From a virus (taxonomy: Duplodnaviria > Caudoviricetes), in the IMG/VR virus record IMGVR_UViG_3300031993_000008, positions 128,001-192,000 of that record: 64,000 bases of DNA, one strand, 5' to 3'. The notes beneath the pieces are model-generated. The model worked only from the letters and a program-made list of their open reading frames with translations, did no database searches and was not told the origin of the DNA. The position numbers and the translations under genes are program-made. Positions 3,796 to 41,866 of the stretch are shown in pieces (the stretch's first letter is position 1; the number at the start of each line of letters is the position of its first letter).

Positions 3796-3840
3796 AATAT
3801 ATTTTATTGTTTAACTTTATGTTTCGATTTGTTCAACCTT

Positions 3841-3852
3841 AAATATAACAAA
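3841..3852 (-). promoter_or_regulatory. Putative middle promoter TTTGTTATATTT
   Basis: Recurrent 12-mer upstream of replication/metabolism genes. Confidence 0.55.
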
Positions 3853-3865
3853 AAAAGAGTGAAAA

Positions 3866-4525: not shown

Positions 4526-4529
4526 CTAA

Positions 4530-5831: not shown

Positions 5832-5853
5832 AATGAATACACATATTATAAAT

Positions 5854-5875
5854 TATTTATGAGTGTCCATAAATA
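5854..5875. promoter_or_regulatory. Divergent pair of late promoters (CATAAATA at 5854-5861 minus and 5868-5875 plus)
   Basis: Back-to-back octamers between divergent genes. Confidence 0.65.
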
Positions 5876-5880
5876 ATAGT

Positions 5881-15123: not shown

Positions 15124-15795
15124 TTATATTGTTTCACCACAGTTAAGTTGGTTAACTATGGTGTTTGTGTTCTCATCAATAGTGAAGTAGTTGTGATAAA
15201 CAGCAACTGTACCATTATATACATTCTCTCTTTCTTCCAGGAATCTCACACTCTCGACAGTCTTGTATTCATAATTGTCTGATGATGTACATACCTTGGT
15301 CAGTTTAATATTATAGAGATCTGCCTCATATCCTTCCCTGGTGCAGACCTCTCTCATATCCCAGATACACTCAAACTCCTCTCCTGATACCTCACATCTC
15401 TTTATGACAGTACCTTTCTTTGTTCCTGTGTATTCTGTAAACTTCCTGTCCTTCTCGTCAATATCAAGTGGAAGAACAGAATTATTCTTAATTGTCACAA
15501 TTTTATATCCCTCATATAAATCACCGGCATACACATAACCTTCATCTGTAAGGAACATATGGTTCAGTGTCGATTTCAATACTGTCCCGTCAGTCAATGT
15601 AATTTCAATGATTCCTATATTGTATCCCGACAACCTGGGATGGAACATTTTTGATACCTTTATATTACCATCGTCGTCAAGGCAATATACATTCACATCA
15701 TCACCGGAATCCGCCAGGTCCTTGAAGGATTTGGGTCCTTCTACTGTCCACACTTTGGTATCTCCTGTTACACAAGGATTTAGATTTTTCATCAT
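15124..15795 (-). CDS. Stand-alone mini-intein (Hint domain, 15142-15774) with 7-aa and 5-aa RNR-derived exteins
   Basis: NP|CVTGDTKV block A; TLNH block B; VYNGTVAVYHNYF block F; terminal N|CGE. Confidence 0.88.
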   Translation of the reverse strand: MMKNLNPCVTGDTKVWTVEGPKSFKDLADSGDDVNVYCLDDDGNIKVSKMFHPRLSGYNIGIIEITLTDGTVLKSTLNHMFLTDEGYVYAGDLYEGYKIVTIKNNSVLPLDIDEKDRKFTEYTGTKKGTVIKRCEVSGEEFECIWDMREVCTREGYEADLYNIKLTKVCTSSDNYEYKTVESVRFLEERENVYNGTVAVYHNYFTIDENTNTIVNQLNCGETI

Positions 15796-23952: not shown

Positions 23953-23960
23953 CATAAATA
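23953..23960 (+). promoter_or_regulatory. Putative late promoter CATAAATA heading the fibre operon
   Basis: Recurrent octamer. Confidence 0.6.
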
Positions 23961-23985: not shown

Positions 23986-24204
23986 ATGGCAAAAGACGTT
24001 GAAACTATTTCTTATATTGATTTGGGTGATGGTGACCAGCATCCTATTGATGCTGTTACTGTCGGAGGTAAGGCAGCAAGTGCTTTCCAGGAAAGTAAGA
24101 TTGTGACAACAATCAGTTCAAGTTCAGATGATGAACATTATCCTTCAGCAAAATGTATGTGGGATATTATTGGTAATATAGAAACAAGATTAAGTAACAT
24201 TTAA
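23986..24204 (+). CDS. Small fibre-associated structural protein
   Basis: KIVTTISSSSDDEHYPSAK resembles a motif seen in phage fibre proteins; first gene of the late operon. Confidence 0.55.
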   Translation: MAKDVETISYIDLGDGDQHPIDAVTVGGKAASAFQESKIVTTISSSSDDEHYPSAKCMWDIIGNIETRLSNI

Positions 24205-24217
24205 AAATATATAGATT

Positions 24218-26389
24218 ATGGCAGATTATCCTTGGACTTCATTATCTGGATCAGATGCACCCGATACATCACATACATGGAGAGGAATATCTATAACTTC
24301 ATGTAATACTTCATCTGCAGCCGAATTGAGGTCAATAGATGAAAATGTACCTATAACTGTTGCAAAAAATAGTACAACACTTGTGTTTATACAATACACA
24401 AAAAATGGTGAAGAATATGATAAAAATGTATCAGTGGGAATATATCCTTCTAGTACAGGTATTTCTAGTGATTGTAGTGGATTTGTGGGTATTGGTTCTG
24501 ATAATAGTAATAAGTATGTAATATCTGGTGGAGACACAACTGTTGCGGCAATTGATCCATACACTAAATATGGAGGTATAGAAGTGTATGCAATACACAA
24601 CTTTGATACTTCACAGGATATTACTTTTTGGATGGCTGGTTCTGGATATTTTAGAAATGTGTATTATGATGTAAATAAATTCTTCAAGGCATCATATTTT
24701 CTTGAAGAAAATGATGGTGCTTCAAGTTGGAAAGATATTGAAAAGTATGGTTGTAGATTTGCTTTTATAGCAAGGAAATATACAACATCTACAGAACAAA
24801 TTCAAGGAGAGAATGTAACAGTTACAGTAAATGAATGGATAAAATACAATTATACATTTTATACAGGTTATACTTATACTATTATACTTGATGTTAATTG
24901 TTCTGATACAAATCATGCAGGATATTATGAAGGTATTGCTTTTTTTAGTTATGACAAAGAAGAACCAAATGTAGGTACAAAAACTTCAGAAATATCAGGT
25001 TTGGAACATGATGCAGATGATAATCCTATATTTGTAGATGGTGATAATAGACATAAAGAATTTGTATATAATCCCACTTCTGATACAACAGGTTATTTCT
25101 ATTTTAGAAAAAATAAATTTGGAGTTGGAGGTATACATTTTGGTCATATAAAGATTATCAGACATATAAATGTAAATATAGGTTCAAATGGTGGAAGTAC
25201 ACAAACACTTAAGTTGAAACCTTATACAGCAGAATATTCTAATATAATACCAGGTATATCTGCACCAACAAGAATGGGTTCAAATAGTATACCATACACA
25301 TTCATTAGTGATGGTTTTTTCACCTCAACACTTGGAAGTGATATGATTTTGAAGTTAAGTGTAAATACTCATACTTCAACTTCTGGATATTATATAAACA
25401 ACTTTGATAAAACAATTGTAACATCTTCTGCTGATTTGTATTGGTATGCTCATTGGGGAAACACAATCTCATATAATCTTACAAGTTCAAGTCCAATATA
25501 TATGTGGGCGACATTGGGAGCAACAGAAGCATCAGAAACAAAGGAAAGTACATATGTTATCATAGCTTCTGAAGGTGTAAAATGTGCATCTAGTGGAACT
25601 GTATCAACATCATTCAGCAGTAGTTCTGGTTTTACAATTGACAGTACTGCACAATACTTATATGCACCAGATGGAAAAGCCACAGGGGTTTCATATAGTC
25701 ATAATGATAGAATACATTTTACATCTCCAAGTAAAACAACATATCCAACTTGTGAAGGTATGACAATGAATACAAATATTGTTCCACCTGTTTATGTTTC
25801 TGCTGTTATGGTCAGTGAATATGGTACACCAAATCCTCCAAGTATTAGTCAGACAAATATAATTCCTGCATATGGGGTTACATTGAACAGTACAAATTTG
25901 AGTAATTATTTTTCTTGGGGTGGTTCAGTACAATATATCAATTATAACAATGGAAGGACAAGAAGTGGAGATATTACATATACCAAGGGTGGAACTGGAA
26001 AAATCCCTTCATTGGGTATCAGTTATAAAAGTACAAATACATCAGCCGATATCAATGGCAGTGTGAAACCATATGTTCAGGCAAATGGTGAGGGAGGAAT
26101 GAGTAATACTTCTCAAATAACAAAGGCAAACCAGGAACCAAATGTGGTTACAAATGTATATACATATTTGGTTAATAACCCTTCTTCATCCACTTCCACT
26201 TCAGGAAGTTTTCATGTGAGTTATGGTTCTATGTTTGGTTTGTGTATGGTTGCAAGATATACATCAGGTGAGGAAAGGGATATATTTGGTGATGGAGTTG
26301 AGGATAGTGTTTCTTTTAGTCTGTCATTACCTTCACACTTGGAATATGTAAAGGTATCTGATCAATTTGTAGATGTATCAGGACAATAA
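24218..26389 (+). CDS. Putative fibre tip/adhesin A, ending in the N-half of an Ig-like domain
   Basis: S/T/Y/G-rich beta protein; paralog of the next gene; C-terminal VARYTSGEER. Confidence 0.6.
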   Translation: MADYPWTSLSGSDAPDTSHTWRGISITSCNTSSAAELRSIDENVPITVAKNSTTLVFIQYTKNGEEYDKNVSVGIYPSSTGISSDCSGFVGIGSDNSNKYVISGGDTTVAAIDPYTKYGGIEVYAIHNFDTSQDITFWMAGSGYFRNVYYDVNKFFKASYFLEENDGASSWKDIEKYGCRFAFIARKYTTSTEQIQGENVTVTVNEWIKYNYTFYTGYTYTIILDVNCSDTNHAGYYEGIAFFSYDKEEPNVGTKTSEISGLEHDADDNPIFVDGDNRHKEFVYNPTSDTTGYFYFRKNKFGVGGIHFGHIKIIRHINVNIGSNGGSTQTLKLKPYTAEYSNIIPGISAPTRMGSNSIPYTFISDGFFTSTLGSDMILKLSVNTHTSTSGYYINNFDKTIVTSSADLYWYAHWGNTISYNLTSSSPIYMWATLGATEASETKESTYVIIASEGVKCASSGTVSTSFSSSSGFTIDSTAQYLYAPDGKATGVSYSHNDRIHFTSPSKTTYPTCEGMTMNTNIVPPVYVSAVMVSEYGTPNPPSISQTNIIPAYGVTLNSTNLSNYFSWGGSVQYINYNNGRTRSGDITYTKGGTGKIPSLGISYKSTNTSADINGSVKPYVQANGEGGMSNTSQITKANQEPNVVTNVYTYLVNNPSSSTSTSGSFHVSYGSMFGLCMVARYTSGEERDIFGDGVEDSVSFSLSLPSHLEYVKVSDQFVDVSGQ

Positions 26390-26429
26390 ATATAATAAGA
26401 ATTAATAATATTTTAAAAAATATAATATT

Positions 26430-28418
26430 ATGGGATATAAAACATGGTCAAATGAATCTGTTGGTAGTTATGCAGGAAGAGGTTTATATAAAAATGGTAC
26501 ATCCGGAGGTGCAGACCTTTTTGCTCCTGATGCAAGTATAATAACTGTTGCTAGGGGAACAACTCTTGTGTATATGGAAACATTGACAGCAGGTATGTCT
26601 GGAGATTATTTGGGATTGCGTAATAGTCCAAGTGGTAGTAGAAACACTTGGATATCAACTGGTTTATATTCATATCAAAGTTATTATGTAGCAGACCTTG
26701 GTGGTGGACCTGGAGGAACTTTTAATGGAACATATGGAGGTAATACCTGTACTGCAATATTTACAATGGAGTCTTATCCTAACCAATCACAGATTTATGG
26801 TCATGCCGAGGGCTCTTGTCAAAGGAATGGAGATGGAAGTCAAGATTTTGAGGCAAGATATGTTAAAACCAGTAGTGGGTTGGAAACATGGGCATCCATA
26901 ACAGATGTACATGGTTATACATATGCTGCCATAACTTTGAATACTGATAGTTACAATGGTTGGTATCATTACTCATATTTATTTTATGGTGGTTTTACTT
27001 ATAATATTACACTTCAGGTATATTGTCCAACTAATGCATATGAAGGTATTGCTGTATTTAATACTACAAAATCAAATAATCAAACAAGTACACAAATAAA
27101 AAACTTAAGTGGTGTACTGTATTATTGTCAGGCAAATGAAAATGGTGGATATAAAAATTTTGATTATACTCCATCTTCAAATACAACTCTTCATTTTTAT
27201 TTTAGGAGGAATGGTGATGTTATAACAAGTAATTATTGGCGCCGTGCATATATAAAAATTGTTATGAAAAACAATGTGGTTGTGTATGGTAATGGTAATG
27301 GTGATTCTACTACTACATATAAAATAGCACCATATGTTGCCAATAGTGGTGTAATCATAACTCCAAAAACCAGAACTGGTTCAAATGGTATAGCATATAC
27401 ATTTAAAGGTTTCTTTACTTCTTCTGCTGGTGGTGATAGTCGTTTTGATTCTACCGGAAAAATAGTGGATAAAGATAAGATATTATATTCCAATGGTTCA
27501 TATTATTATAATGTGTATGCTGGTTGGGGAAACACAATTTCCTACAGTCCTTATACCACAACAGTCGGTACATATTGTACAACAGCAGCATCTGTTGCTA
27601 ATAGTGCTACAGGAAATGTATCAGTAAAGGTGGCTGCTGAACCTGCAAAGTGTGCATCTGGTGAAACATTGTCTGTATCAGTCAGCCCTAATTACAGGTG
27701 GCCTACTATAAACAGTGATGCACAATATCTGACTGTATCAAATGGATTGGCTGGAGGTCAGACATATGGTGGTCCTAATGTGTATATTTCATCCAAGAGT
27801 GGAAGTAATTATCAGTCTATGGAACTGTCAAAATCTCTTCCATCCATTAGACTTTCCAAAGTTGCTGTAACTACATATGGTACACCCACCACTCCTACAA
27901 TTACACAAACCAGAAATATTTATCCTTCAGTATATTCTATAAATAGTAATAATGTGACAACCTTTTTCAGCGGAAAAAATTCAACACAGACCATTACTTA
28001 TACCAATGGTGCCACAAGAAATGGAAGTATAACATATGAATGGGGCGGAAGTAAAACATTGGATTTGGGTATGACATATATGCCTAGTAGTTCAACAGTC
28101 AATTTCAATAACAGTGTATATGTTTGTGCAAAGGGTGAAAACAGTATATATTCTTCAAAAGCATATATATCAACTGCTACAGTTGCATCAAATGTAATTA
28201 CAAATCTGTATCTGCTTGAACCTTATAATCAGGAATCATCACAACCTGATGATCTTTATTGGGCTGACCCGAATAGTAGTCAAAGACTTTTTTTAATAGT
28301 TGCAAGGTATACATCTGGTGAAGAAAGGGAAATCTTAAATAATAACGGTAATCTCCATTATAGTTATTATGCATCTCCTTCTGATATGTTGTCTATGGTT
28401 ATGATATCTTGGTATTAA
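26430..28418 (+). CDS. Putative fibre tip/adhesin B, ending in the N-half of an Ig-like domain
   Basis: Colinear motifs shared with 24218 (YEGIA, FYFRxN, TRxGSN, WGNTISY, YGTP, VARYTSGEER). Confidence 0.6.
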   Translation: MGYKTWSNESVGSYAGRGLYKNGTSGGADLFAPDASIITVARGTTLVYMETLTAGMSGDYLGLRNSPSGSRNTWISTGLYSYQSYYVADLGGGPGGTFNGTYGGNTCTAIFTMESYPNQSQIYGHAEGSCQRNGDGSQDFEARYVKTSSGLETWASITDVHGYTYAAITLNTDSYNGWYHYSYLFYGGFTYNITLQVYCPTNAYEGIAVFNTTKSNNQTSTQIKNLSGVLYYCQANENGGYKNFDYTPSSNTTLHFYFRRNGDVITSNYWRRAYIKIVMKNNVVVYGNGNGDSTTTYKIAPYVANSGVIITPKTRTGSNGIAYTFKGFFTSSAGGDSRFDSTGKIVDKDKILYSNGSYYYNVYAGWGNTISYSPYTTTVGTYCTTAASVANSATGNVSVKVAAEPAKCASGETLSVSVSPNYRWPTINSDAQYLTVSNGLAGGQTYGGPNVYISSKSGSNYQSMELSKSLPSIRLSKVAVTTYGTPTTPTITQTRNIYPSVYSINSNNVTTFFSGKNSTQTITYTNGATRNGSITYEWGGSKTLDLGMTYMPSSSTVNFNNSVYVCAKGENSIYSSKAYISTATVASNVITNLYLLEPYNQESSQPDDLYWADPNSSQRLFLIVARYTSGEEREILNNNGNLHYSYYASPSDMLSMVMISWY

Positions 28419-28445
28419 ATAAAATAAAATAATTAACAATTAAAT

Positions 28446-31400
28446 ATGGCCAATGCTTTACTAATATCACCATTACATCACGGAACAGGTTCTTTTACTA
28501 TAACCTGTGAAAACTATACCAGGAACTTTAATGCTGAAGTGGGATGTTATGGTAATGCATCTTTTAGTACTACCATTAACACCGGGACCTTGAAATATGA
28601 CGGTTCCGCAAAAAATCTCACATCATCAACAAGTACATCTGGTATATCATCATATTCATTGGGTTATAAGAAGGGGTCTCAAGCAACAAGTGATAGTCAG
28701 ATAACATGGCAGACAAACCCTTCAGGTGGTAAACTCACTGCAACTGATGCTGGTACATATTATATTTACAAAAAGTATACTGTCAATAGGGATTATTGTG
28801 GAAGTGATCTCGCATATACCTATGTGGGTTCAAAGGTCATAGGATGTGGTGATGCTTATGTAGCAACAAATGGATGGACACATAATGGAAGTCAGTATAT
28901 GGAGTATAATCCTATGGACTCCCAGAAGGTCTATCTTAAAACAAAGAATAATACTGGTAGTCTAACCCAACCAGGAAGTGTTACATATGCCGATGGTTAT
29001 TCTACTTCCGGAACATGGACTCTTTATTCTGATAGTGGTGGATATTATATTATGATTCCTGCTGGTATTCATGGAGGAACCTGGTCAGTTACAGCAAGTT
29101 TTTCAATTGCTGCTTCATCTGATGGAAACTATTGTTCCGGTACAAAATCTATAACATGGAGTATATATATTGCCTGCAGACTACCTGACCTTGAGATTTC
29201 CGGATATGATGCTGATTATATTGTAGATCATTCAGGTACTCTTAATATTACATCCACATATCCAGATTCTGCTGATTTTACTATTTCAACCGGATATGCA
29301 CCTGTTGATTTTTATGCTGGAGGTTATCCTGCATCATCTGATTATATTTTGTATTATGAGGGAAGAATAGGGGCACATGAAAGCACAACTTTTTATCAGT
29401 TGGAAGAAGTAGGTTATGAAGAATTTTATGTATGCTTTGTTTCACCTAATTATGAAAATTGGTGTCATTTCCCAGGTTATCCTGACCAGGATTCCATACA
29501 GGTAACTGTTACTGTTCAGAAATACACACCTACTATCACATTTACCAATTTAACCAAAAAATATAATGGAACAGTCCTTACACCAAACGCAATTGTATCA
29601 TTACCTTCTGGAGGTAAGAGACTGAAAGGTACAATACATTATGGTTACACCGGTTCATCAGGTGACCACTATGTATCTTATGATAGTAATACTGGTTATA
29701 TATGGTTGGAAGATGCTGAAATAAGAGATGTTGGAAGTAGAAATGTTTGGGCGTGGTTTGAACCTGATAGTACATGCAATGATGTATATAATAACAGTCC
29801 AAGTGATAGTGGTAGTATAGCCAGTACAACAATATCTGTAACCAAGGGTGACAATCCGATGACATTGTCAAAATCATCAGTAACACTTTATAGTGATGCT
29901 TATTGTTCTACATACAAGACTGCATCCATTACTGTAAATAACAATGCAGGTACACCAACTGCATCTTCAAGCAATACAAGTGTTGCAACTGTATCTGCAT
30001 TTAATTCATCCAACAATACATTTACTGTAACTTATGTTGGTGCGGGTTCAGCTACAATAACAGTGACAGACCCTGGTAACTCAAATTACAATTCAGGTAC
30101 AAAGACCTGTTCTGTTACATGTTATGTTGATGAAGAATATTCAACACAATATAAAGACCAGGCATGTACAACACAGGGTGTAAACATAACTTATGGTACA
30201 CCAACTGTAACTATTGGTAATTCTCCCGGACTTACCTGTGCCGGTGGTAGTGCAACAGTTTCTTGTTCTGTGACTAACAGTAGTAGTTGGTATCAGAAAT
30301 GGAAATCAGGATGTGTAAAACCACACAGTGGTTCTCCAACCGGAACAGCAACATGGTCTATCACAACCCAGACATTCACTCCTTCTGGTGGAAGTGCATC
30401 AACTATAACCAGATTCAGTAGTTCAGGTAATACATTGTCACATGCAACAATGGGAACAAATGTGGGTACTGACTATGTAAAGATTACAGCAGTTAATTCT
30501 GGTGATTCATCAAAGACTGCAATAGCAGAGAAGAGTATAACCAATAGTGTCACTAATTCTGATTATAATGCAACTAACAGTAATTATACTGCTAGTGTAT
30601 CAATAGGTAATGGACTTACTTGTGCCGGTGGTAGTGCAACTGTAACAGCAAGTGCATCACACACCCACACATATTATTACCTGTATTGTTCAGGTTCAAC
30701 AAGTGGACCTTACACTTCAACCCCAAGTGATACTGTAACATGGTCTATTACATCACAGACATTCACTCCTTCTGGTGGAAGTGCATCAACTATAACCAGA
30801 TTCAGTAGTTCAGGTAATACATTGTCACACTCATCAATGGGAACAAATGTTGGTGTTGATTATGTAAAGATTACAGCAACTAATGCAGGAAATAGTAATG
30901 CTACTGCAACAGCAGAAAAGAGTATAACCAATAGTGTCACTAATTCTGATTATAATGCAAGTAACAGTAATTATACTGTCAGTGTAACTATTAGTGGTGG
31001 TCCTGTGGCTGGTACAAGTAGTGCCACTGTAACAACAAATGCATCACACACCCACACATATTATTACTTGTATTGTTCAGGTTCAACAAGTGGACCTTAC
31101 ACCTCAACTGTATCTGATGGCGCATCTTGGTCTATTACATCACAGACATTCACTCCTTCTGGTGGTAGTGCATCAACTATAACCAGATTCAGTAAGAATG
31201 CATCAACCGGTAAGTTGGATCACTCATCAATGGGAACAAATGTAGGTACTGACTTTGTAGAGATTACAGCAATCAATACTGGTGATAATACTGCAACTGC
31301 AAGCACAAGTAGGAGTATAACCAATGCTATAACTGATTATGATTATAATGCATCCAATAGTAATTATAATGTTAGTGTATCAATAGGTGATGGTTTGACT

Positions 31401-34202
31401 GCTGGTGGTGGTAGTGCAACTGTGACTGCATCAGGAAGTCACACTCGTACTTATTATTATTATTATAATTCTGGTTCAACAAGTGGACCTTACACTTCAA
31501 CCCCAAGTGATACTGTAACATGGTCTATTACAACCCAGACATTCACTCCTTCTGGTGGAAGTGCATCAACCATAACCAGGTTTAGTAAGAATACATCAAC
31601 TGGTAAGTTAGATCACTCAACAATGGGAACAAATGTAGGTACAGATTATATAAAGATTACAGCTACTGGAGGAAATAATACCACTGCAACAGCAGAAAAG
31701 AGTATAACCAATGCTTTAACCAATAGTAATTTTAATCCATCAGGATATACAGTAGATGTATCAATAGGTAATGGTCTTGGTCCTGGTGCAAGTAGTGCAA
31801 CTGTAACTGCAAGTGCATCACATGTTGCTTATAATTATTATACATCTGGATCTGCTGATCCATCAACACATACAGTAAATGATAGTGTTTCTTGGTCTAT
31901 TACATCACAGACATTTAACACATCAACTGTAATTACCAGGTTTAGTAAATCAGGTAATACTTTGTCACATAGTAGTATGAATGATACTGTAGGTACAGAT
32001 AAGGTTACAATTACTGCAACCAATGGTAGTAACTCATCAACCACAAAAGCAGTATCTAAGGAGGTAACCAACTCAAAGGATAGTACAAACTATTCACCTT
32101 CTAATTATACAGCAAGTGTATCAATTGGTAATGGTCTTGGTCCTGGTGTAAGTAGTGCAACTGTAACAGTAAGTGGTAGTCATACAGCATATGATTACTA
32201 TACTTCTGGTTATTACAATAATTCACATACTGTTACTGGTGATGGTGCAACATGGTCTATTACATCACAGACATTTAACACATCAACTACAATTACCAGG
32301 TTCAGTAAATCAGGTAATACTTTGTCACATAGTAGTATGAATAATAATGTTGGTACAGATAAGGTTACAATTACTGCAACTAACTCTGTAAATAGTAGTG
32401 GTACAGCAACAGCATCTAAAGAAGTAACCAACTCAAAGGATAGTACAAACTATTCACCTTCTAATTATACAGCAAGTGTATCAATTGGTAATGGATTGAC
32501 TGCTGCCGGTGGTAGTGCAACTGTAACCGTAAGTGGTAGTCATACAGCATATGATTACTATACTTCTGGCTATTATGATAACTCACATACTGTTAATGAT
32601 GGTGCAACATGGTCTATTACATCACAGACATTTGCTCCTGCAACTGGTGGAAGTTCATCAACCATAACCAGGTTCAGTAAATCAAGTAATACATTGTCAC
32701 ATTCATCAATGGGAACAAATGCCGGTACCGACTATGTAAAGATTACAGCATCCAACTCTACAGATAGTAATGCTACTGCAATAGCAGAGAAGAGTATAAC
32801 CAATGCAATTATCACAACTCAGAAATATAAGAATACAAGTGGTACAACTGGTTATAATATAACTTATGTTACACCAACTGTATCTATTGGTAATGGTTTT
32901 ACTGCTGCTGGTGGTAGTGCAACAGTTACCTGTTCTGTAACTAACAACACAGATTGGTATTATAAATATGACTCTGGTAATTACACTTCACAATATACAA
33001 GTACAGAAGCAGGTACTGCAAAGTGGAGGATAACATCAAATGGTAACAGTAGGTTCTCTGAACCATCATCTGGTGGAAGTACTATAACTGTAGGTGGTTC
33101 TAATGTGACAGTTTATTCAACTGGTAGTGCTGTATCACATAGTTCTATGGGTACTTCTGCCACAACAGACAGTGTTACAGTTACAGCATATAATGTGGGT
33201 GATACAACAAAATCTGCAACAGCAAGTAAGAGTGTAACAAATTCACTTGGTTCTACCAAATATAAGAATACTTCTGGTACAGAGGGTTACAATATAACTT
33301 ATGTTGCACCAACCTGCACATTGACAAATAACCTTACTGCTGCTGGTGGTAGTGTAACTGTTACCTGTTCTGTAACCAATAACACAGACTGGTATCAAAG
33401 ATATACCTCTGGTTCATATACAGCAAAACAGACAGGTACAGAAGCAGGTACTGCAAAGTGGAGGATAACATCAAATGGTAACAGTAGGTTCTCTGAACCA
33501 TCATCTGGTGGAAGTACTATAACTGTAGGTGGTTCTAATGTGACAGTTTATTCAACTGGTACTGATGCATCACATAGTAATATGACAACCAATGCTACAA
33601 CAGACACTGTTGGTATCACAGCATATAATGTTGGTGATCCAACAAAGACAAGTGGTGAGAAGACAGTAAGTATAGGTAATGCTATTACAAATAGTAACTA
33701 TTCACCTTCTAATTATACAGCAAGTATTTCAATTGGTAATGGTTTGATTGCTGCCGGTGGTAGTGCAACTGTATCAGCAAGTGCATCACACAAGGCATAT
33801 GATCTTTATACATCAGGATCATATAACAATCAACACAATGTTAGTGATAGTGTTACTTGGGAAATAACCTCTAATGGAAATAGTAGATTCACCAAGACAA
33901 ACAATACCACCTTATCACATAGTAATATGACTACTAATGCTGTAACTGATAGTGTCACAGTAAAGGCTACAAACTCAACAGATACAACTGCAACTGCAAC
34001 TGCAAGTAAGAGTATAACCAATGCTGTGGAAAGTATTTCATTGGCAGTTAATGGAAAGACTGATGCAACTTCTGTTCCATTTGGTTCAAGTATTGCTTCT
34101 TCAAACATAGTCTTGACAGGAACATATACATCCGGTTCAACTGGAACACTTACACCAAAGGCAGTTTCATCAAGTGATACAACAGTTGCAACAGTATCAT
34201 AA
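28446..34202 (+). CDS. 1918-aa Ser/Thr-rich repetitive Ig-like fibre protein
   Basis: Intact Big_2-like domain at about 29850-30125; about ten 120-145-aa repeats; ends in SSSDTTVATVS. Confidence 0.75.
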   Translation: MANALLISPLHHGTGSFTITCENYTRNFNAEVGCYGNASFSTTINTGTLKYDGSAKNLTSSTSTSGISSYSLGYKKGSQATSDSQITWQTNPSGGKLTATDAGTYYIYKKYTVNRDYCGSDLAYTYVGSKVIGCGDAYVATNGWTHNGSQYMEYNPMDSQKVYLKTKNNTGSLTQPGSVTYADGYSTSGTWTLYSDSGGYYIMIPAGIHGGTWSVTASFSIAASSDGNYCSGTKSITWSIYIACRLPDLEISGYDADYIVDHSGTLNITSTYPDSADFTISTGYAPVDFYAGGYPASSDYILYYEGRIGAHESTTFYQLEEVGYEEFYVCFVSPNYENWCHFPGYPDQDSIQVTVTVQKYTPTITFTNLTKKYNGTVLTPNAIVSLPSGGKRLKGTIHYGYTGSSGDHYVSYDSNTGYIWLEDAEIRDVGSRNVWAWFEPDSTCNDVYNNSPSDSGSIASTTISVTKGDNPMTLSKSSVTLYSDAYCSTYKTASITVNNNAGTPTASSSNTSVATVSAFNSSNNTFTVTYVGAGSATITVTDPGNSNYNSGTKTCSVTCYVDEEYSTQYKDQACTTQGVNITYGTPTVTIGNSPGLTCAGGSATVSCSVTNSSSWYQKWKSGCVKPHSGSPTGTATWSITTQTFTPSGGSASTITRFSSSGNTLSHATMGTNVGTDYVKITAVNSGDSSKTAIAEKSITNSVTNSDYNATNSNYTASVSIGNGLTCAGGSATVTASASHTHTYYYLYCSGSTSGPYTSTPSDTVTWSITSQTFTPSGGSASTITRFSSSGNTLSHSSMGTNVGVDYVKITATNAGNSNATATAEKSITNSVTNSDYNASNSNYTVSVTISGGPVAGTSSATVTTNASHTHTYYYLYCSGSTSGPYTSTVSDGASWSITSQTFTPSGGSASTITRFSKNASTGKLDHSSMGTNVGTDFVEITAINTGDNTATASTSRSITNAITDYDYNASNSNYNVSVSIGDGLTAGGGSATVTASGSHTRTYYYYYNSGSTSGPYTSTPSDTVTWSITTQTFTPSGGSASTITRFSKNTSTGKLDHSTMGTNVGTDYIKITATGGNNTTATAEKSITNALTNSNFNPSGYTVDVSIGNGLGPGASSATVTASASHVAYNYYTSGSADPSTHTVNDSVSWSITSQTFNTSTVITRFSKSGNTLSHSSMNDTVGTDKVTITATNGSNSSTTKAVSKEVTNSKDSTNYSPSNYTASVSIGNGLGPGVSSATVTVSGSHTAYDYYTSGYYNNSHTVTGDGATWSITSQTFNTSTTITRFSKSGNTLSHSSMNNNVGTDKVTITATNSVNSSGTATASKEVTNSKDSTNYSPSNYTASVSIGNGLTAAGGSATVTVSGSHTAYDYYTSGYYDNSHTVNDGATWSITSQTFAPATGGSSSTITRFSKSSNTLSHSSMGTNAGTDYVKITASNSTDSNATAIAEKSITNAIITTQKYKNTSGTTGYNITYVTPTVSIGNGFTAAGGSATVTCSVTNNTDWYYKYDSGNYTSQYTSTEAGTAKWRITSNGNSRFSEPSSGGSTITVGGSNVTVYSTGSAVSHSSMGTSATTDSVTVTAYNVGDTTKSATASKSVTNSLGSTKYKNTSGTEGYNITYVAPTCTLTNNLTAAGGSVTVTCSVTNNTDWYQRYTSGSYTAKQTGTEAGTAKWRITSNGNSRFSEPSSGGSTITVGGSNVTVYSTGTDASHSNMTTNATTDTVGITAYNVGDPTKTSGEKTVSIGNAITNSNYSPSNYTASISIGNGLIAAGGSATVSASASHKAYDLYTSGSYNNQHNVSDSVTWEITSNGNSRFTKTNNTTLSHSNMTTNAVTDSVTVKATNSTDTTATATASKSITNAVESISLAVNGKTDATSVPFGSSIASSNIVLTGTYTSGSTGTLTPKAVSSSDTTVATVS
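30170..34020 (+). repeat. Tandem intragenic repeats of about 360-435 nt
   Basis: TGGTCTATxACAxCxCAGACATT recurs near 30354, 30741, 31128, 31521, 31893, 32253 and 32610; 33001-33126 is identical to 33436-33561. Confidence 0.9.
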
Positions 34203-34214
34203 TGGTCAATATAT

Positions 34215-34222
34215 CATAAATA
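34215..34222 (+). promoter_or_regulatory. Putative internal late promoter CATAAATA
   Basis: In the 43-nt gap between fibre genes. Confidence 0.55.
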
Positions 34223-34245
34223 ATATAAGAAAAAATATATACAAT

Positions 34246-37200
34246 ATGGCAACAATAACAGGTATAAAAGTTGGTTCAACAAACATTACTGCCACTTATG
34301 GATCTTTAACCAGTAATACAGTTGTTTTGAGTGTTACCGCTTTGAATTTGGGAACAGTTGGTACCATTTCTGGATTGTCAAATCAGACATATACAGGTAG
34401 TGCTATTAAACTTAATCCTACAGTTACGGTAACCGCAACAGGTGTTGGTACAGATGTTCCCCTTGCAAAGGATACTGACTATACTGTATCTTGGAGTAGT
34501 AGTGTAGATTCCACATCTTGTATTGCTGTTGGTACTGTTACAGTTACTGTTACAGGTAAGGGTAATTATACAGGTTCAAAAACAGCAACATACAATATTA
34601 CTGGTGCTACAATTACAGTTAAGACATCTGGTCAGTCATCTCTTATTAACCAGACTTATACATACAATGGTTCTGCCCAGGGTGTTGGTATTGTGGCAAC
34701 AACAACAAATAGTCAGACAGCAACAATCAGGTATAGAACTGCATCAAGTGGTGAATATAACTTGACATCTGCACCACAGATAACAAATGTTTCACAGTCA
34801 CCATTAACGGTTTATTATCAGGTTACAGCACCTAACCATGCTGATAAGACCGGTTCATATACAATTACTATCAATCCCGCTGGAATAACCATACCTACTC
34901 CTACTGGTATCACCAAGACATATGATGGTAGTGCTTATTCAGCATCATTTGGTTCAGTAACAGGTGCATCTATTACCAAATATCGTTATAATACTTCTGG
35001 TGCTACATCATCTTGGACTGAAACTACAACTCTTCCTTCAAGGACATCTGTTGGTACAACAACAGTTCAGGCATACTATACAGCAGATGGTAACCACAAT
35101 GGAAGTGGTTGGTCTTCAACAGCATCAATTGTTATTAATGCTGCTGACTTTACAGTAACTGCCAATAACCAATCATTTACTTGGACAGGTAATGCTCAGG
35201 GTAATGCTATTTCAGTAACTAACTTGAAGGGTAGTCAGACTGCAACAATTAAATATGGTACAACATCAGGTACATATGACTTGACATCTGCTCCAAAGAT
35301 AACCAATGTTTCACAGTCACCATTAACAGTTTATTGGCAGGTAACTGCTTCAAACCATAATACACAGACAGGTTCATATACAATCACTATCAATCCTGCT
35401 GGAATAACCATACCTACTCCTACAAGTAATGAACATATATATACAGGTACAACATATTATGCAACATTCCCTGCTGCTTCATATGCAACTATAACCAACT
35501 ATAGATATTCAACAACAGATGGTTCCGGTTGGTCTACATCAAATACAAACCCGGGTAATTCAACTGTTAGGACATTATATGTTCAGGCATACTATACAGC
35601 AGATGGTAACCACAGTGGAAGTGGTTGGTCTTCAAGTGCAACAATCACAGTAACCAATGCTACAATAACAGTAACAGCCAATAATCAGAGTTACACATAT
35701 AATGGTTCTGCCCAGGGTGCTGCTATTTCTGCATCAACAGTCAATAGTCAGACTGCAACAATTAAATATGGTACAACATCAGGTACATATGACTTGACAT
35801 CTGCTCCAAAGATAACCAATGTTGCAGATTCAAAGACTATATACTACCAGGTTACAGCACCTAACCATGCTGATAAGACCGGTTCATATACCTTGACTAT
35901 AACACCGGCAACACCTACATTCTCATTGACAGGTAGTACCAAGACATATCATGAGGGTAGTGCAGACATCAAGGCAACTGCATCTGTTGCAGGTACAGTT
36001 CATTGGGGAACAACATCCAGTGCTATGACAAGCACAAAGTCTATATCTGCTAATACTGCAACAACTGTGACAAGCAGAACTGAATCTAATGGTGTAGGTA
36101 CAACTACAATTTATGCATACTTTATACCTACAGATAATTCAAATTATAATTCAGTTGGTAGTTCATCACAATATGCACAGTCTGCTGCTGCAAAGATTAA
36201 TGCATCTGGTGATAATGATATTACTGTAAGTGTAGAAGGTACTCTTTATTATACTGGTTCTGCTCAGGTTATTGCAACCATGACTGATCGTGAAGGTGTT
36301 GCTCACTTCACATTGGGTTACAGTACAACATCAAATGGTACAGTAACTTGGGGTACTCAGGATGCAACAACAATTTCAGCTACTAATCCTGGAACATATT
36401 ATATACATTATAAGTTGACCCCAGATAGTAACCACAGTACAACAATTGAAAATAAACAAATTGATGCTACTTCAACTATCAACAATGGTACATTGACAAT
36501 CACAGTAACAGGATATAGTGCTACATATGATGGTTCTGCTCATAATATTGTTGCATCTGGACCTTCTGCAAAGAACCAGGCCAACCAGACCGTTACAGGT
36601 GTTACATATACTTATTCAACTTCTGAAAATGGAACTTATGGATCAATGCCAACACGTACTGCTGCCACTGGAACATCAGCAAATGAAAGTGCAACAGTAA
36701 CATATTGGGTAAAGGCAGATATGGATGGTTATACAACAGCCAAGAAATCATTCACAGTTTATATTGCCAGGGCTGCTAATCCTCTTACAATTTCACCTAC
36801 CACAGCAACTATTTACAATACAACAGGATATAACACAGTTCAGATTACTCCTTCAGGAGCACAGGGCAGTGTAAGTTATTCTTCAAGTGCTACTGGTAAG
36901 GCAACTGTAAATAGTTCTGGTTTGGTTACATATGTTGCTGCCGGTACAGCAACTATAACTGTAACTGCTGCTGGTAATGACAACTATAAGTCTGGTTCAA
37001 AGACCTGTGCAGTTACAACAGTTGTTGATACTGTTACCTCTTATGGTGATATTACAGGTACAATAACCATTACACAGAAGGCAAACTTCCCAGCAGGAGG
37101 TGTAACATTGACAACAAGTAATATTTCCACATATTTCAATTATACAAGTACAGCAGCACAAACAAAAACTTGGGCATCTGGAAATACAACAAGTGGAACA

Positions 37201-37548
37201 ATCACACATACATGGAGTGGTACAAATGTAAGTATTCCATCATTGGGAACATCAGAGACATCAACAGTTACTTCAAGAAACATCAGTTTCACTGTAACTG
37301 CATCTGGTGAGGGAAGCAAGACAAAGAGTGCATCAGTTTCAACAGGTAACCAGGAGGCCAACCCTGTAACTGGAATTACTTTGTCATTGGTAACTGCCGG
37401 AGATTCAACAAATACTCCTAAGACCAGTGTTGCATTTGGTTCATCCTTGAACACAAGGTTGGTGGCAACATATAAGTCTGGTTCAACAGGTGTAGTTTCA
37501 CCAAAGACTGTTACATCAAGCGATACAACTGTTGCAACAGTATCATAA
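34246..37548 (+). CDS. Ig-like (MBG/Big_2-type) repeat fibre protein, about 1100 aa
   Basis: Starts MATITGIKVG; YTGSA...KDTDYTVS...TGKGNYTG modules; internal repeats; intact Big_2 at about 36775-37025; ends in SSDTTVATVS. Confidence 0.75.
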   Translation: MATITGIKVGSTNITATYGSLTSNTVVLSVTALNLGTVGTISGLSNQTYTGSAIKLNPTVTVTATGVGTDVPLAKDTDYTVSWSSSVDSTSCIAVGTVTVTVTGKGNYTGSKTATYNITGATITVKTSGQSSLINQTYTYNGSAQGVGIVATTTNSQTATIRYRTASSGEYNLTSAPQITNVSQSPLTVYYQVTAPNHADKTGSYTITINPAGITIPTPTGITKTYDGSAYSASFGSVTGASITKYRYNTSGATSSWTETTTLPSRTSVGTTTVQAYYTADGNHNGSGWSSTASIVINAADFTVTANNQSFTWTGNAQGNAISVTNLKGSQTATIKYGTTSGTYDLTSAPKITNVSQSPLTVYWQVTASNHNTQTGSYTITINPAGITIPTPTSNEHIYTGTTYYATFPAASYATITNYRYSTTDGSGWSTSNTNPGNSTVRTLYVQAYYTADGNHSGSGWSSSATITVTNATITVTANNQSYTYNGSAQGAAISASTVNSQTATIKYGTTSGTYDLTSAPKITNVADSKTIYYQVTAPNHADKTGSYTLTITPATPTFSLTGSTKTYHEGSADIKATASVAGTVHWGTTSSAMTSTKSISANTATTVTSRTESNGVGTTTIYAYFIPTDNSNYNSVGSSSQYAQSAAAKINASGDNDITVSVEGTLYYTGSAQVIATMTDREGVAHFTLGYSTTSNGTVTWGTQDATTISATNPGTYYIHYKLTPDSNHSTTIENKQIDATSTINNGTLTITVTGYSATYDGSAHNIVASGPSAKNQANQTVTGVTYTYSTSENGTYGSMPTRTAATGTSANESATVTYWVKADMDGYTTAKKSFTVYIARAANPLTISPTTATIYNTTGYNTVQITPSGAQGSVSYSSSATGKATVNSSGLVTYVAAGTATITVTAAGNDNYKSGSKTCAVTTVVDTVTSYGDITGTITITQKANFPAGGVTLTTSNISTYFNYTSTAAQTKTWASGNTTSGTITHTWSGTNVSIPSLGTSETSTVTSRNISFTVTASGEGSKTKSASVSTGNQEANPVTGITLSLVTAGDSTNTPKTSVAFGSSLNTRLVATYKSGSTGVVSPKTVTSSDTTVATVS

Positions 37549-37560
37549 TCATATAAATTT

Positions 37561-37597
37561 TGTTTTCACATTCTCCATTAAGGAGGATGTGAAAACA
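37561..37597 (+). other. 16-bp intergenic stem-loop without U-tract
   Basis: TGTTTTCACATTCTCC-attaa-GGAGGATGTGAAAACA. Confidence 0.7.
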
Positions 37598-37624
37598 TTA
37601 TAAAAACAAAGAGTTAATAGAAGT

Positions 37625-38590
37625 ATGAGTATAGTAAAGGGTATTAAGGTAGGTTATGCGGATATTACCGCAACATACGATAGTACTACTGCATTATCTG
37701 ATACTGAAGGTCTGACAGTTGTTGCTGTACCACTTGGAGGAATTGCATCTCCAAACAATACAACATATGATGGCAACCCACAGTATCCAACACCCACAGT
37801 AACTGCTACTGTGGGTGGTGAGGTTATTGTTCTTGTCAAAGACACTGATTATACATTATCATATTCAAACAATACCAATACCGGTACTGCAACAGTGACC
37901 GCAACAGGTAAGGGAAATTATAGTGGAGAAGTATCATCAACCTGGACAATCAACAGTGCTGAAATTATTGTTGATGTTTCTGATCAGGAATATACATATA
38001 ATGGTTTATCACAAGGTATTGGAGTTTCAGTATCACTTGTTTCAGGAGAACCAACAATTAAATATGGATTATCATCAGGAACATACAACCTTACAACAGC
38101 ACCACAGTTCAGGGATGTCAAGACATCAGGTACATCATATTACACAGTATATTACCAAGTCATAGCAGAGAACCATACAACCAATGAGGGTTCATATAAG
38201 GTTACAATTATACCTTTGACTGCAATACTTGAGTGGGGAGATACATCTTGGGTATATGATGGGGAACAACATTATACAACATGTGTTGTTAGTAATAAGG
38301 TATATGGTGATGATTGTGTTGTTACATTGTCTGGAAACAGTATTACCAATATTGGTTCAACAACAGTAACAGCAGTGGGATTTTCAGGAACAGATGGAAG
38401 CAATTATAAATTGCCGGTAGAACAGGTTCTTTTGGAGAGAACTCTTACTGTAAGGGCAGGTTTGTTTGTCAAGTTGTCAGGTGTCTGGACACCGGTTAAA
38501 AGAGTATATAAAAAGGTGTCTGGAAACTGGGTTGAACAGGAGATGGATTCTGCATTTAGTACTTCAAAGATGTACAAGAAAATGAATTAA
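37625..38590 (+). CDS. Ig-like fibre protein, putative proximal/anchor subunit
   Basis: Starts MSIVKGIKVG; MBG-like modules; C-terminal FVKLSGVW..VKRVYKKVSGNW. Confidence 0.7.
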   Translation: MSIVKGIKVGYADITATYDSTTALSDTEGLTVVAVPLGGIASPNNTTYDGNPQYPTPTVTATVGGEVIVLVKDTDYTLSYSNNTNTGTATVTATGKGNYSGEVSSTWTINSAEIIVDVSDQEYTYNGLSQGIGVSVSLVSGEPTIKYGLSSGTYNLTTAPQFRDVKTSGTSYYTVYYQVIAENHTTNEGSYKVTIIPLTAILEWGDTSWVYDGEQHYTTCVVSNKVYGDDCVVTLSGNSITNIGSTTVTAVGFSGTDGSNYKLPVEQVLLERTLTVRAGLFVKLSGVWTPVKRVYKKVSGNWVEQEMDSAFSTSKMYKKMN

Positions 38591-38595
38591 TGATT

Positions 38596-38603
38596 CATAA
38601 ATA
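38596..38603 (+). promoter_or_regulatory. Putative late promoter CATAAATA
   Basis: Upstream of 38639. Confidence 0.6.
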
Positions 38604-38638
38604 CATAAAGAATATACAATATAAAAACAAATAAAATT

Positions 38639-40696
38639 ATGGCAAAACGTTTAAATGATAATGATGTTTTTGGTCTTGTAGATACTGCTGCATCCAATTA
38701 TATTCAGGAAATTTATGATGGTACAAACACTCATGCTGTTGCTGTTAAAAAAGGTATAACCTTCTTTAATGGTAGTGCTGATACCACTGGTGTTGTATGG
38801 AATGGTGTTCAGGAACTTGAGGTTGTTATCCCTACACTTGCTGATATCGTTTCAAACCCTGTAGTTCTTAAGGGTGTAATTAATAACGATTCTCAGATTC
38901 CTTCAACTGCATCAAATGGTGACTTGTATTACATTGGTGCAGATGGTGTTACAATTGATGGTCAGCTCTGTGAGGCTGGAGATATGGCAGTTTATTATAA
39001 TAGTGCTTGGCATGTAATTTCTGGTGAGAATCAGGTTACTATCAACACCTCTGCCGGTACAGTTACAGGTAATGACACAGTATTCTCAATTTCAGGTACA
39101 GCAAAGACTATCCTTACAGTTGAAGGTAAGACTTTGAGTGTTGAACTTGACTATGATGATATAGCAAGTAAGGTTAATGTTTCAAAGGGTGGTTCTGCTG
39201 CTATTTCAGTTGTAAATGGTACAGTTTCTGTTGATTCTATGAATATTGCTCTCGCAAAGACAGCCGGTGTATCACAGGATATTGCAACAGAAAAGACTAT
39301 TGCTCTTCCAACAGCCCTTGCATCTGGTGCAGTTACAATCAGTGAGAGTGTTCTTATATCATCTGACTTCTCATTTACCCAGGGTTCATTCCCAACAGCA
39401 AGTGTAAATACTACTGCTATTTCTATCAATGCTTCAACAGATATTTCAGTTACAGGTACATTTGTAACATCAGTTTCAGCTGTTGGTGGTGTATCTTTTG
39501 AAGAGGGTTCAAATGTAAGTAATGACCTTGCTTTTGTAACTGGTCTTACTTCTGCTTCAGGTACAAATTTTGTAACCGGAATCCGCACATTTGTATCAGA
39601 TGGAGAAACCCCAGATGCTTCAACAGATGTTATATTTGAAATCCCAGGTGCTGTTACTGTAACAGGTACAAGTACATTTGCAACAGGTTTTGGTGCAGCT
39701 GCAGCTTCTGGTGATGTTATTTCATCAGTTTCAGTTGGTGCAGTTACTATTGGTACTGGTACAGACATTGTAACTGGTCTTACTGGTGCAGGTAATTCAG
39801 TTATTACAGGTGTTACATTTGGTGATGCTTCAACAGACAGCACAAGAGAGTGGTTCTATAGTGGTCTCACAGAGGGTAGTGATGTTGTTACTGATGTTAC
39901 TGTTGGCACAGTTTCATTTGTTAGTGGTAATGATACAGCAGGTATGACAGATTCTGCTCTTGTAACCGCTTCTGTAAGTAACCATGTTCTTTCATTCACA
40001 ACTGGTACATTTATGAAACCTGTAAGTATTTCACAGGCTTCTTCTTCAGTTAGTAAGAAGGGATTCACAAAGACAGGTATTTCACTTACTGGATTTAGTT
40101 CAACATCAGATACCTTTACAAAGGGTGGTATCAGTCAGGCTGAAACAACTGTTTCTTATAAGAGTCTTACAACTGATAGTATTAACATTGCTCTTGGTTC
40201 AGCAACCAAGTATGTAGCTGATAAGGCAGAAGATCATGCATATACAGCAACAATGGGTTATAAGAAACTTTCATTGACTGATGCAACAACCTCAACAGGT
40301 TCACCTACACTTACAGGTACAAACATTACAGCTACTATCCCAGCTGAAACAGTTGTTGTTGGACTTAATGCAGGTACACTTCCTTCATTAGAAATTGGTG
40401 CACCATCAGGTACACTCACAGGTTCTGTTGGTACTACATTGGATACATCATCTGTTTCTTGGCTTGCTGTCGCATCTGATAAGAGAAATATTGCTGGTGG
40501 TGATACATATACATTGACATCTAACAGTTCAGCAGAAGGTGTTATCTCTGGTAGTGTAATTTCTGTTGCTGCTGCTGATAACTATGATGTTACAGGTGCA
40601 ACTGTTACAATTGCTTCTGGTGTCTTTGTAACTGATGTTGAAGTAAATGGTTCTACTGCTCTGCCGGTTCCAGTTCTTCAACCAGTGCTCAACTGA
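38639..40696 (+). CDS. Thr/Ser/Gly/Val-rich beta-strand structural (fibre-like) protein
   Basis: LKG...GDLYYI...EAGDM....W motif at the N-terminus; composition; late motif upstream. Confidence 0.6.
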   Translation: MAKRLNDNDVFGLVDTAASNYIQEIYDGTNTHAVAVKKGITFFNGSADTTGVVWNGVQELEVVIPTLADIVSNPVVLKGVINNDSQIPSTASNGDLYYIGADGVTIDGQLCEAGDMAVYYNSAWHVISGENQVTINTSAGTVTGNDTVFSISGTAKTILTVEGKTLSVELDYDDIASKVNVSKGGSAAISVVNGTVSVDSMNIALAKTAGVSQDIATEKTIALPTALASGAVTISESVLISSDFSFTQGSFPTASVNTTAISINASTDISVTGTFVTSVSAVGGVSFEEGSNVSNDLAFVTGLTSASGTNFVTGIRTFVSDGETPDASTDVIFEIPGAVTVTGTSTFATGFGAAAASGDVISSVSVGAVTIGTGTDIVTGLTGAGNSVITGVTFGDASTDSTREWFYSGLTEGSDVVTDVTVGTVSFVSGNDTAGMTDSALVTASVSNHVLSFTTGTFMKPVSISQASSSVSKKGFTKTGISLTGFSSTSDTFTKGGISQAETTVSYKSLTTDSINIALGSATKYVADKAEDHAYTATMGYKKLSLTDATTSTGSPTLTGTNITATIPAETVVVGLNAGTLPSLEIGAPSGTLTGSVGTTLDTSSVSWLAVASDKRNIAGGDTYTLTSNSSAEGVISGSVISVAAADNYDVTGATVTIASGVFVTDVEVNGSTALPVPVLQPVLN

Positions 40697-40753
40697 TTCC
40701 AGTTCTTCAACCAGAACCAAATAATGCATAATCAAAACACTTAATATATGATT

Positions 40754-40798
40754 GAAAAGGACTTGGATTTCAAGTCCTTTTCTTTTTTTGTTATATTT
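40754..40798 (+). terminator. Terminator hairpin running into a middle promoter (TTTGTTATATTT, 40787-40798)
   Basis: GAAAAGGACTTG-gattt-CAAGTCCTTTTC followed by a T-tract. Confidence 0.7.
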
Positions 40799-40822
40799 AA
40801 TGTATATAAAATATCTTTTAAT

Positions 40823-41866
40823 ATGGAACATAAAAGACTTCAGTTTTTGGTTCCCCAATATAAGGAGACAGAGGATGTTATCAAGTTTCTTCTTGATTCA
40901 ATAGAATGTCAGGTTCTTATTGATAAGAAAGATATAGGTGTAATTATCTGTTCTGATGGTGGGGAATATATACTTGACAGAAATTTTCTTGACAGTTATT
41001 CTTATGATATTGACTATATCATATGTCCTCACAGGAATGTATCTTCAACCAGGAATTCTGCACTTTTATTGTCAGATGCTGATTATATTATGTTTTGTGA
41101 TGCTGATGATGGTTTCTGTAACTTATTTGGAATTAAAATCATATTTGAAAATATTGATATCAGTGACAAGACCAACACCCCATTTGATTTATTGACATCA
41201 AAGTTTTATTGTGAAAGGTCAAGTGATGAAGGACATACAGGAAGTAAAAACACTTGTTCAAAAGATATATCTTGGGGACTTACTATGGGTGATCATAACA
41301 ATATATTCATTCATGGTAGAGTTTATAAAAGAGAGTTTCTTATAAAAAATTTCCTTTATTGGAATGAAAAGATTTGGGCAAATGAAGATAGTTTCTTCAA
41401 TATATCAACAAATCTTTATGCAAAGGATAAAATAAAGGCATTGGATGTTCCTATTTATTGTTGGAGAAGTAATCCACAGTCTGTTACAAATGACCCAAAA
41501 TTTATAGTGAAGACACTTCATCAGTTGATTTATTCTAATGATAGTGTACTTGAAACAATGCTTTTATTAAAAATAAATGAAAAGGAAATTGGAAAGTGTG
41601 CTTTCGATATAATCTGTAAGGTATATCTTGATATGAACAGACCTTGTTGGTATGAGGAAGGAAATAGTGAATATAGAGATATTACACTTAAGACATTACA
41701 ATGGTTCATAAACAAAAGGGGATTATTGTGTGAATGTCTTACTGATGATGAAAAAAAGGATACTCTTCAGAATGCAAGAGGTTCACAACATTATAAAAAT
41801 ATTGAAAGTATTGCATTTAATGATTTTATAAACTTTGTAATGAATTATGGAAAAGAACAGAAATGA
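40823..41866 (+). CDS. GT2-family glycosyltransferase
   Basis: FLVPQYKE, ICSDG, NVSSTRN, YIMFCDADD, NEDSFF; ATG at 40823. Confidence 0.85.
   Translation: MEHKRLQFLVPQYKETEDVIKFLLDSIECQVLIDKKDIGVIICSDGGEYILDRNFLDSYSYDIDYIICPHRNVSSTRNSALLLSDADYIMFCDADDGFCNLFGIKIIFENIDISDKTNTPFDLLTSKFYCERSSDEGHTGSKNTCSKDISWGLTMGDHNNIFIHGRVYKREFLIKNFLYWNEKIWANEDSFFNISTNLYAKDKIKALDVPIYCWRSNPQSVTNDPKFIVKTLHQLIYSNDSVLETMLLLKINEKEIGKCAFDIICKVYLDMNRPCWYEEGNSEYRDITLKTLQWFINKRGLLCECLTDDEKKDTLQNARGSQHYKNIESIAFNDFINFVMNYGKEQK

Follow-up and report, generated by a model that had tools for sequence, protein, structure and literature searches.

Consecutive genes of a Lak-related jumbo phage divide a Lig-type Big_2 domain between them: a putative fibre of separately encoded subunits

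Chaperone-usher pili (Fim, Pap) are built by donor-strand exchange, in which the N-terminal donor of one subunit completes the immunoglobulin-like (Ig) fold of its neighbour and tip, shaft and anchor roles are divided among the subunits; a single strand is donated, the pilins are secreted single-domain proteins, and both a chaperone and an usher are required. The type V pili of Bacteroidia are made from lipoprotein precursors, are triggered by a protease and use a C-terminal donor strand in a different fold, and T4 Hoc and other Ig-chain decorations of phages are single polypeptides, some of them extended by frameshifting. In the baseplate of the Lactococcus phage Tuc2009, a beta-hairpin of BppU completes the C-terminal beta-sandwich of BppA, giving a composite that resembles a titin Ig domain and a joint through which an accessory module is attached (PMC4742702). 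Here we report on a cluster of fibre-like genes (positions 24218-38590, plus strand) in a 64,000-nucleotide (nt) stretch of a jumbo phage genome (IMG/VR record IMGVR_UViG_3300031993_000008, positions 128,001 to 192,000; hereafter the window), in which one gene ends, and the next begins, inside a Big_2 domain of the Lig type. By analogy, the BppU/BppA pair of Tuc2009 is the nearest phage precedent for such a split-Ig joint.

A preliminary description of the window had proposed that two of these genes stop partway through a Big_2-like domain and that the genes after them start with the missing strands, and both points hold. The gene for a protein of 1918 amino acids (aa), termed the distal shaft (28446-34202), and that for a protein of 1100 aa, the proximal shaft (34246-37548; its length is reckoned from the ATG at 34246), share the ending SSDTTVATVS followed by TAA, and the genes at 34246 and 37625 open with donor motifs. 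We built a hidden Markov model (HMM) of the Lig-type Big domain (97 positions) from 400 of 1327 collected intact bacterial domains. The acceptor profile had served to find these domains; the part of the model for the completing strands came solely from intact bacterial sequences. On this model the C-terminal halves, or acceptors (34014-34199 and 37351-37545), span positions 10-62 and 18-62, and the N-terminal halves, or donors (34246-34341 and 37625-37726), positions 67-95 and 67-93. The comparison of joined with single halves that had been suggested gave 34.2 and 30.6 bits for these two lower joints versus 12-19 bits for the halves singly, the scores being additive. Among all termini of open reading frames (ORFs) in the genome, clear matches were confined to two C-termini (17-19 bits) and two N-termini (11.6 bits), the others reaching at most 3.6 bits, and the two junctions rank 1 and 2 among 182 adjacent gene pairs. 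Neither half alone matched Pfam, and an alignment of 27 acceptors matched solved Big domains (LigA, LigB and teneurin-like) over their initial ~60 residues, ending at the cut. Intact copies inside the same proteins had been cited as showing the join; intact Big_2 domains are indeed present in both (about residues 470-540 of the 1918-aa and 846-909 of the 1100-aa protein), but they are of a different Big_2 subtype, which the joined-halves HMM did not recover. The Lig-type domain itself was found in chain proteins only as split halves, never as an intact internal copy. An HMM made from the internal copies gave only weak joined scores because of their subtype, and was replaced by the Lig-type HMM.

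The break point is kept in related phages, as the preliminary description had suggested checking. The same cut (HMM 62/67) was found at 25 canonical junctions in ~18 phages, although the halves are only ~30-55% identical, and in all canonical joints acceptors cover about positions 3-62 and donors 67-95 of 97, the absent positions 63-66 corresponding to a beta-turn. The joined halves are collinear with the whole profile (positions about 3-95) in the two lower window joints and in 23 canonical joints of relatives, which score 18-56 bits when joined. The 321-aa protein at the end of the chain, termed the anchor (37625-38590), has 227 homologues, and the donor motif starts 119 of the 120 that were listed (110 by HMM), the exception being a truncated start call. 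The relatives are metagenome assemblies, several with gut-sample labels, and appear to be mostly from the rumen, judging from accompanying bacterial records. The makeup of the cluster varies from two to five chain genes encoding 229 to 3375 aa, and in every chain seen whole acceptor-only genes come first and a donor-only gene comes last; in the relative L093, a single donor is available for two acceptor-only genes. No fused intact form of a joint was seen in a homologue search covering proteins of 176-562 aa. Genuine terminal halves numbered 0 in 150 representative proteins and 0 in 3059 ORF termini from bacterial loci, and searches of bacterial genomes returned internal Ig domains only, with neither the anchor nor the split ends.

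We then considered whether the halves fit together. AlphaFold2 predicted the anchor with an overall predicted local distance difference test score (pLDDT) of 90.5. The model opens with a low-confidence N-terminal hairpin (53-69 for residues 1-30), continues through three Ig domains and closes with a small, Trp-containing beta domain (38459-38587). When the acceptor of the 1100-aa protein was modelled with the donor of the anchor, the complex scored 0.85 versus 0.02 for the best control; the mark for such models is one that 58 of 80 solved pairs and 2 of 110 mismatched pairs attain, though with the alignments used here these numbers apply only roughly. The runs shared at least 97% of contacts with a partner pLDDT of 89-92, which was only 39-40 for the same acceptor with unrelated partners, and the donor made contacts over residues 1-21 and 24-36, amounting to three strands. 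The suggested co-folding thus succeeded in the model for this one cognate pair (1100/321), which shows compatibility, not binding.

Upstream of the shafts lie the genes of two tips, tip A (24218-26389; 723 aa) and tip B (26430-28418; 662 aa), each with a divergent acceptor half at its end (about 26132-26386 and 28182-28415) and no donor at its start, and the 1918-aa protein opens with a divergent donor (28446-28544). The 26430/28446 junction had been proposed as a third joint, a proposal that homology and a biased model favour but that the HMM scores poorly. Residues 542-685 of tip A align at 37.5% identity (E 1e-14) with residues 941-1080 of the 1100-aa protein, a stretch that extends into its acceptor, and hhalign matched tip A to the acceptor alignment at E 0.001. 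Tips A and B are 35% identical and align to their ends, and two homologues of tip B (P0278 and that of the relative L098) have the same kind of ending; in L098 the tip is followed after 27 nt by an orthologue of the 1918-aa protein with a recognisable donor start, and these two proteins together reach 8.3 bits on the HMM (positions 32-94). Read through as one chain, the in-frame 26430/28446 junction gave one folded domain (pLDDT 69) whose best match was LigB 2MOG (Z 8.3, rmsd, i.e. root mean square deviation, 2.9, 95 aligned), a match biased by an alignment that contained intact Lig domains. Because the homology of tip A, the L098 pair and, weakly, the read-through model agree, the third joint is probably a split Lig-type joint too. 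By its sequence tip A, which ends in an acceptor, is a paralogous second tip. Since the 26430 gene has no donor at its start, the likeliest reading is that tips A and B are alternatives served by one donor. Through its divergence the tip joint may be orthogonal to the two lower joints.

The motif CATAAATA stands at the head of the cluster (23953-23960) and again in the gap before the 1100-aa gene (34215-34222). As 49 of its 62 copies in the genome lie within 80 nt upstream of an ORF, for example the sheath, portal, protease and tail tube-like genes, it behaves as a late promoter, and the copy at 34215 would give the 1100-aa gene a late promoter of its own.

The reading we favour, and consider likely, is that the phage produces the subunits as separate cytoplasmic proteins late in infection, that these couple by completing each other's Big_2 domains in the order tip, 1918 aa, 1100 aa, 321 aa, with a presumed polarity of tip and anchor, and that the chain is docked through the C-terminal domain of the anchor. 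The cluster would then encode one modular virion fibre of Ig-like domains, possibly serving adhesion. Each subunit would be translated on its own with a C-terminal acceptor of ~60 residues, comprising the first strands of the Lig-type domain and poorly folded alone, which the three-stranded N-terminus (~30 residues) of the next subunit would complete in trans, so that the joint is non-covalent and has the form of a normal Ig bead. Tip A or tip B, with an acceptor only, would bind the 1918-aa protein in vivo, followed by the 1100-aa protein and by the anchor, with a donor only, whose conserved C-terminal beta domain would dock the chain on the particle. We estimate such a chain at about 4000 residues and ~40 domains, of the order of 150 nm if extended.

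Several points weigh against this reading. At the third joint the 26430/28446 pair by itself scores 0.6-2 bits on the Lig-type HMM, and its model is middling and steered by the intact Lig domains in its alignment. Cognate and non-cognate pairing are not separated by sequence at the two lower joints, and complex prediction tends to accept the halves of a split domain because they resemble solved structures. The putative virion location rests on the promoter motif and the gene neighbourhood; the anchor had no match among 50,697 phage records, and no cultured relative carries it.

Compared with the systems introduced above, the predicted joint would resemble that of Tuc2009 in that strands of one protein complete the C-terminal beta-sandwich of another, here in the model and with a presumed place in the virion. 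Tuc2009 has a single joint with a 25-residue C-terminal donor, in contrast to the N-terminal three-stranded donor, Lig-type Big_2 domain, three serial joints and alternative tips described here. The preliminary description had known of nothing like it for phage fibres, which has to be qualified in view of the comparable joint of Tuc2009; the principle is not wholly undescribed for phages, and what would be new relative to that one joint is the serial use of split-Ig joints with exchangeable tips. A literature search, whose coverage left out most subscription journals, found no description of a serial split-Ig or strand-complemented phage fibre. With chaperone-usher pili the cluster has in common an N-terminal donor, tip, shaft and anchor roles and a stem-loop between shaft and anchor genes, as between papA and papH (PMC6524683). 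Unlike them, its subunits have 3-20 domains and no signal peptide: the maximum 19-residue hydropathy of the chain proteins is 1.0-1.6, without any hydrophobic segment, and the donor begins at residue 2. The likeness to pilus donor-strand complementation that had been drawn stands insofar as an incomplete fold would be completed, but the donor (HMM 67-95) comprises three strands, about a third of the domain, and not one. No chaperone or usher gene was evident among the neighbours, where no family search was aimed at them. Type V pili are alike in strand complementation between subunits and probably in the host phylum, and differ from the chain proteins, which have no leader and an N-terminal donor. 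The domain subtype is shared, by profile and by fold, with Leptospira LigA/LigB (PDB 8GYR, 2MOG, 2MQG) and a teneurin-like Ig domain (9IFO), which are always intact in one chain, whereas here the domain is split over two. The Hoc-like layout of the anchor, a string of Ig domains and a small terminal docking domain, recalls T4 Hoc, in which there is no complementation.

The chain of tip, 1918 aa, 1100 aa and 321 aa drawn in the preliminary description is supported as to its joints, but the two alternative tips branch it and a strict 1:1:1:1 order is not established, as the lower joints are 57% (acceptors) and 53% (donors) identical. In a variant of the favoured reading, rather than its negation, the joints are the same and the 1100-aa subunit, made in excess and carrying both donor and acceptor, polymerises with itself between anchor and cap into a chaperone-free, pilus-like assembly of variable length, which we regard as possible though rather unlikely. 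Self-pairing of the 1100-aa protein scores 37.5 bits, above both cognate pairs, and two acceptors of one genome resemble each other more (0.49) than acceptors of different genomes do (0.33-0.37). Among relatives, CATAAATA was found in 8 of 13 gaps before shaft genes versus 1 of 17 before anchor genes, and all 17 gaps before anchors, but only 1 of 13 before shafts, contain a long hairpin (-21 to -32 kcal/mol) that lacks a U tract; in the window a 16-bp hairpin of this kind lies between the 1100-aa and anchor genes (37561-37597, z -6.6). These hairpins were folded one by one, their sequences being unalignable and giving no consensus in RNAalifold. Motif and hairpin together suggest that more shaft than anchor is made, a parallel to the pap operon, where a partial terminator between papA and papH lowers downstream transcripts (PMC6524683). 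Sequence and expression signals would thus allow a homopolymerising major subunit, and we entertain, just as tentatively, a chaperone-free pilus-like fibre in which a shaft polymer lies between the virion anchor and alternative caps, its length is set by the shaft promoter and the anchor-limiting hairpin, and one particle bears mixed tips. On the other side, donors sort by position, the nearest neighbour being of the same class in 27 of 29, which fits position-specific joints or merely shared descent; in L081, shaft and anchor are fused in one 3375-aa protein without an acceptor end, so that the lower joint is absent and polymerisation could not occur; the acceptors of L003, L008 and L094 are divergent (31-34% identical); and the effect of a hairpin without a U tract on transcripts is only predicted.

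A chain that is real but not a virion appendage, such as a scaffold inside the cell or a structure set free at lysis, is improbable in our view. The chain proteins carry no structural annotation, as this would have it, yet the cluster shares its late-promoter motif with the sheath, portal and protease genes, phage Ig domains are typically exposed on virions, and the proteins that the anchor resembles in structure are Hoc, fibre and tail Ig proteins. Look-alikes of the anchor C-terminal domain in the Atlas were mostly viral, being termini of unnamed proteins and, weakly, a gp38 adhesin cluster (template modelling score, TM, 0.50 over 33 residues). Somewhat less plausible still is intramolecular closure, in which the N-terminus of the middle protein completes its own C-terminal acceptor as in a circular permutation, giving rings instead of a chain. 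Self-pairing is compatible by sequence, but in rings neither the donor-only anchor nor the acceptor-only tips would have a partner, although both are conserved in every complete cluster, and the two ends of the 1918-aa protein are unlike each other.

We hold it very improbable that the halves are joined at expression into one polypeptide by frameshift, read-through, ribosomal bypass or a small intron. Gaps at 28 junctions measure 27-505 nt (mostly 27-103 nt), every upstream gene stops at TAA and the initiator Met is invariant; frames 0/1/2 occur across them in 10/9/9 cases and the downstream frame is closed in 27, the sole open one, at 34202/34246 in this genome, being the point in favour. Whole unrelated genes separate the halves in L081 and L096, the promoter motif lies inside gaps, and no Rfam family, introns included, matched the gaps or the anchor hairpin, so that neither programmed recoding nor a group I or II intron agrees with what was found. 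Matching take-off and landing codons, as for bypassing, occurred in 12 of 28 gaps, mostly as A/T-rich codons in A/T-rich spacers, and were absent from the three gaps of the window; this candidate was rejected. A bacterial split (P0214 in L177, 3950-4010) was likewise set aside as a plain one-base frameshift in a Big_2 surface protein, and shows how a true accident differs, cutting mid-strand and continuing in another frame. Random gap frames and unrelated genes between the halves strongly disfavour recoding, introns and assembly error alike. Misassembly, or a gene that is decaying through recent nonsense mutations, can be dismissed, the same cut recurring in ~18 divergent phages whose assemblies are independent (ENA, JGI, NCBI, Logan), with spacers, promoters and hairpins in the gaps. 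Of the proposal that separately translated subunits are linked by split Ig couplers, the separate genes and their conserved cut are thus observed, and the coupling is predicted by the complex model.

If the favoured reading is correct, jumbo phages assemble adhesin fibres of great length out of modules encoded by separate genes, with a naturally split Ig domain as standard plug and socket; fibre length and receptor tips could be changed by gene swap, and two tips could be displayed at once. This would be relevant to host recognition in abundant uncultured gut phages, and annotation of such genes as truncated or fragmented would be wrong. Dozens of split-domain pairs (about 60 + 30 residues), similar to one another in varying degree, exist naturally in the family; they make pairing specificity directly testable and are candidate non-covalent protein couplers.

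The genome holding the window has 248,382 bases, uses genetic code 11 and belongs to a Lak-related jumbo phage, its major capsid protein being closest to that of an uncultured 462-kb phage (44%) and then to Lak megaphages of Prevotella (33%). A Shine-Dalgarno motif precedes only 4 of 241 start sites, which are A/T-rich, and this fits a Bacteroidota host. Scans of viral contigs with single proteins gave no match.

Tips of another design occur in L094 and L096, where the acceptor is internal, ~125 residues from the end, and is followed by another domain without completing strands. These tips (L094:6835-9966 and L096:3382-9495) have in common a C-terminal domain of ~125 aa, which a second L094 protein (3098-6028) carries as repeats without an acceptor. 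A stand-alone 72-aa ORF outside the chain cluster of L002 (12017-12235) consists of an acceptor half and a 17-residue Trp-rich tail, possibly a minimal cap. In the window, the cluster is preceded by a small gene, also of 72 aa (23986-24204, plus strand), that adjoins tip genes in at least six relatives (L008, L081, L093, L094, L096, L098); its start resembles those of a 1361-aa ORF at genome position 219083 and of a 976-aa L094 protein. The final 45 nt of the two shaft genes (34158-34202 and 37504-37548) are identical at 40 of 45 positions, a possible recombination site for deleting or duplicating the 1100-aa module.

Downstream of the anchor follows a conserved gene for a 685-aa protein (38639-40696, plus strand) with its own CATAAATA at 38596 and a U-tract terminator at 40754-40782; this protein is a candidate docking partner of the anchor. 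Most relatives have a gene of 80-160 aa between these two, which is missing here (38590-38639) and in L001, L007, L008 and L096. A conserved gene always found after the cluster (40748-41866) has homologues with weak matches to GT2 glycosyltransferases. The 1918-aa protein is a Ser/Thr-rich Ig chain with eight ~125-aa repeats, Ser and Thr make up 34-35% of the shafts, and a link between them and the GT2-like gene is speculative because that gene lies beyond a terminator.

Outside the window, at least eight ORFs (genome 71338-81552) have a common N-terminal leader, a WG..LDRG motif and variable bodies. On the minus strand of the window, a 223-aa ORF (15124-15795) directly upstream of an anaerobic ribonucleotide reductase gene looks by its sequence like a near stand-alone intein, and the gene at the corresponding position in L098 has an Intein_splicing match.

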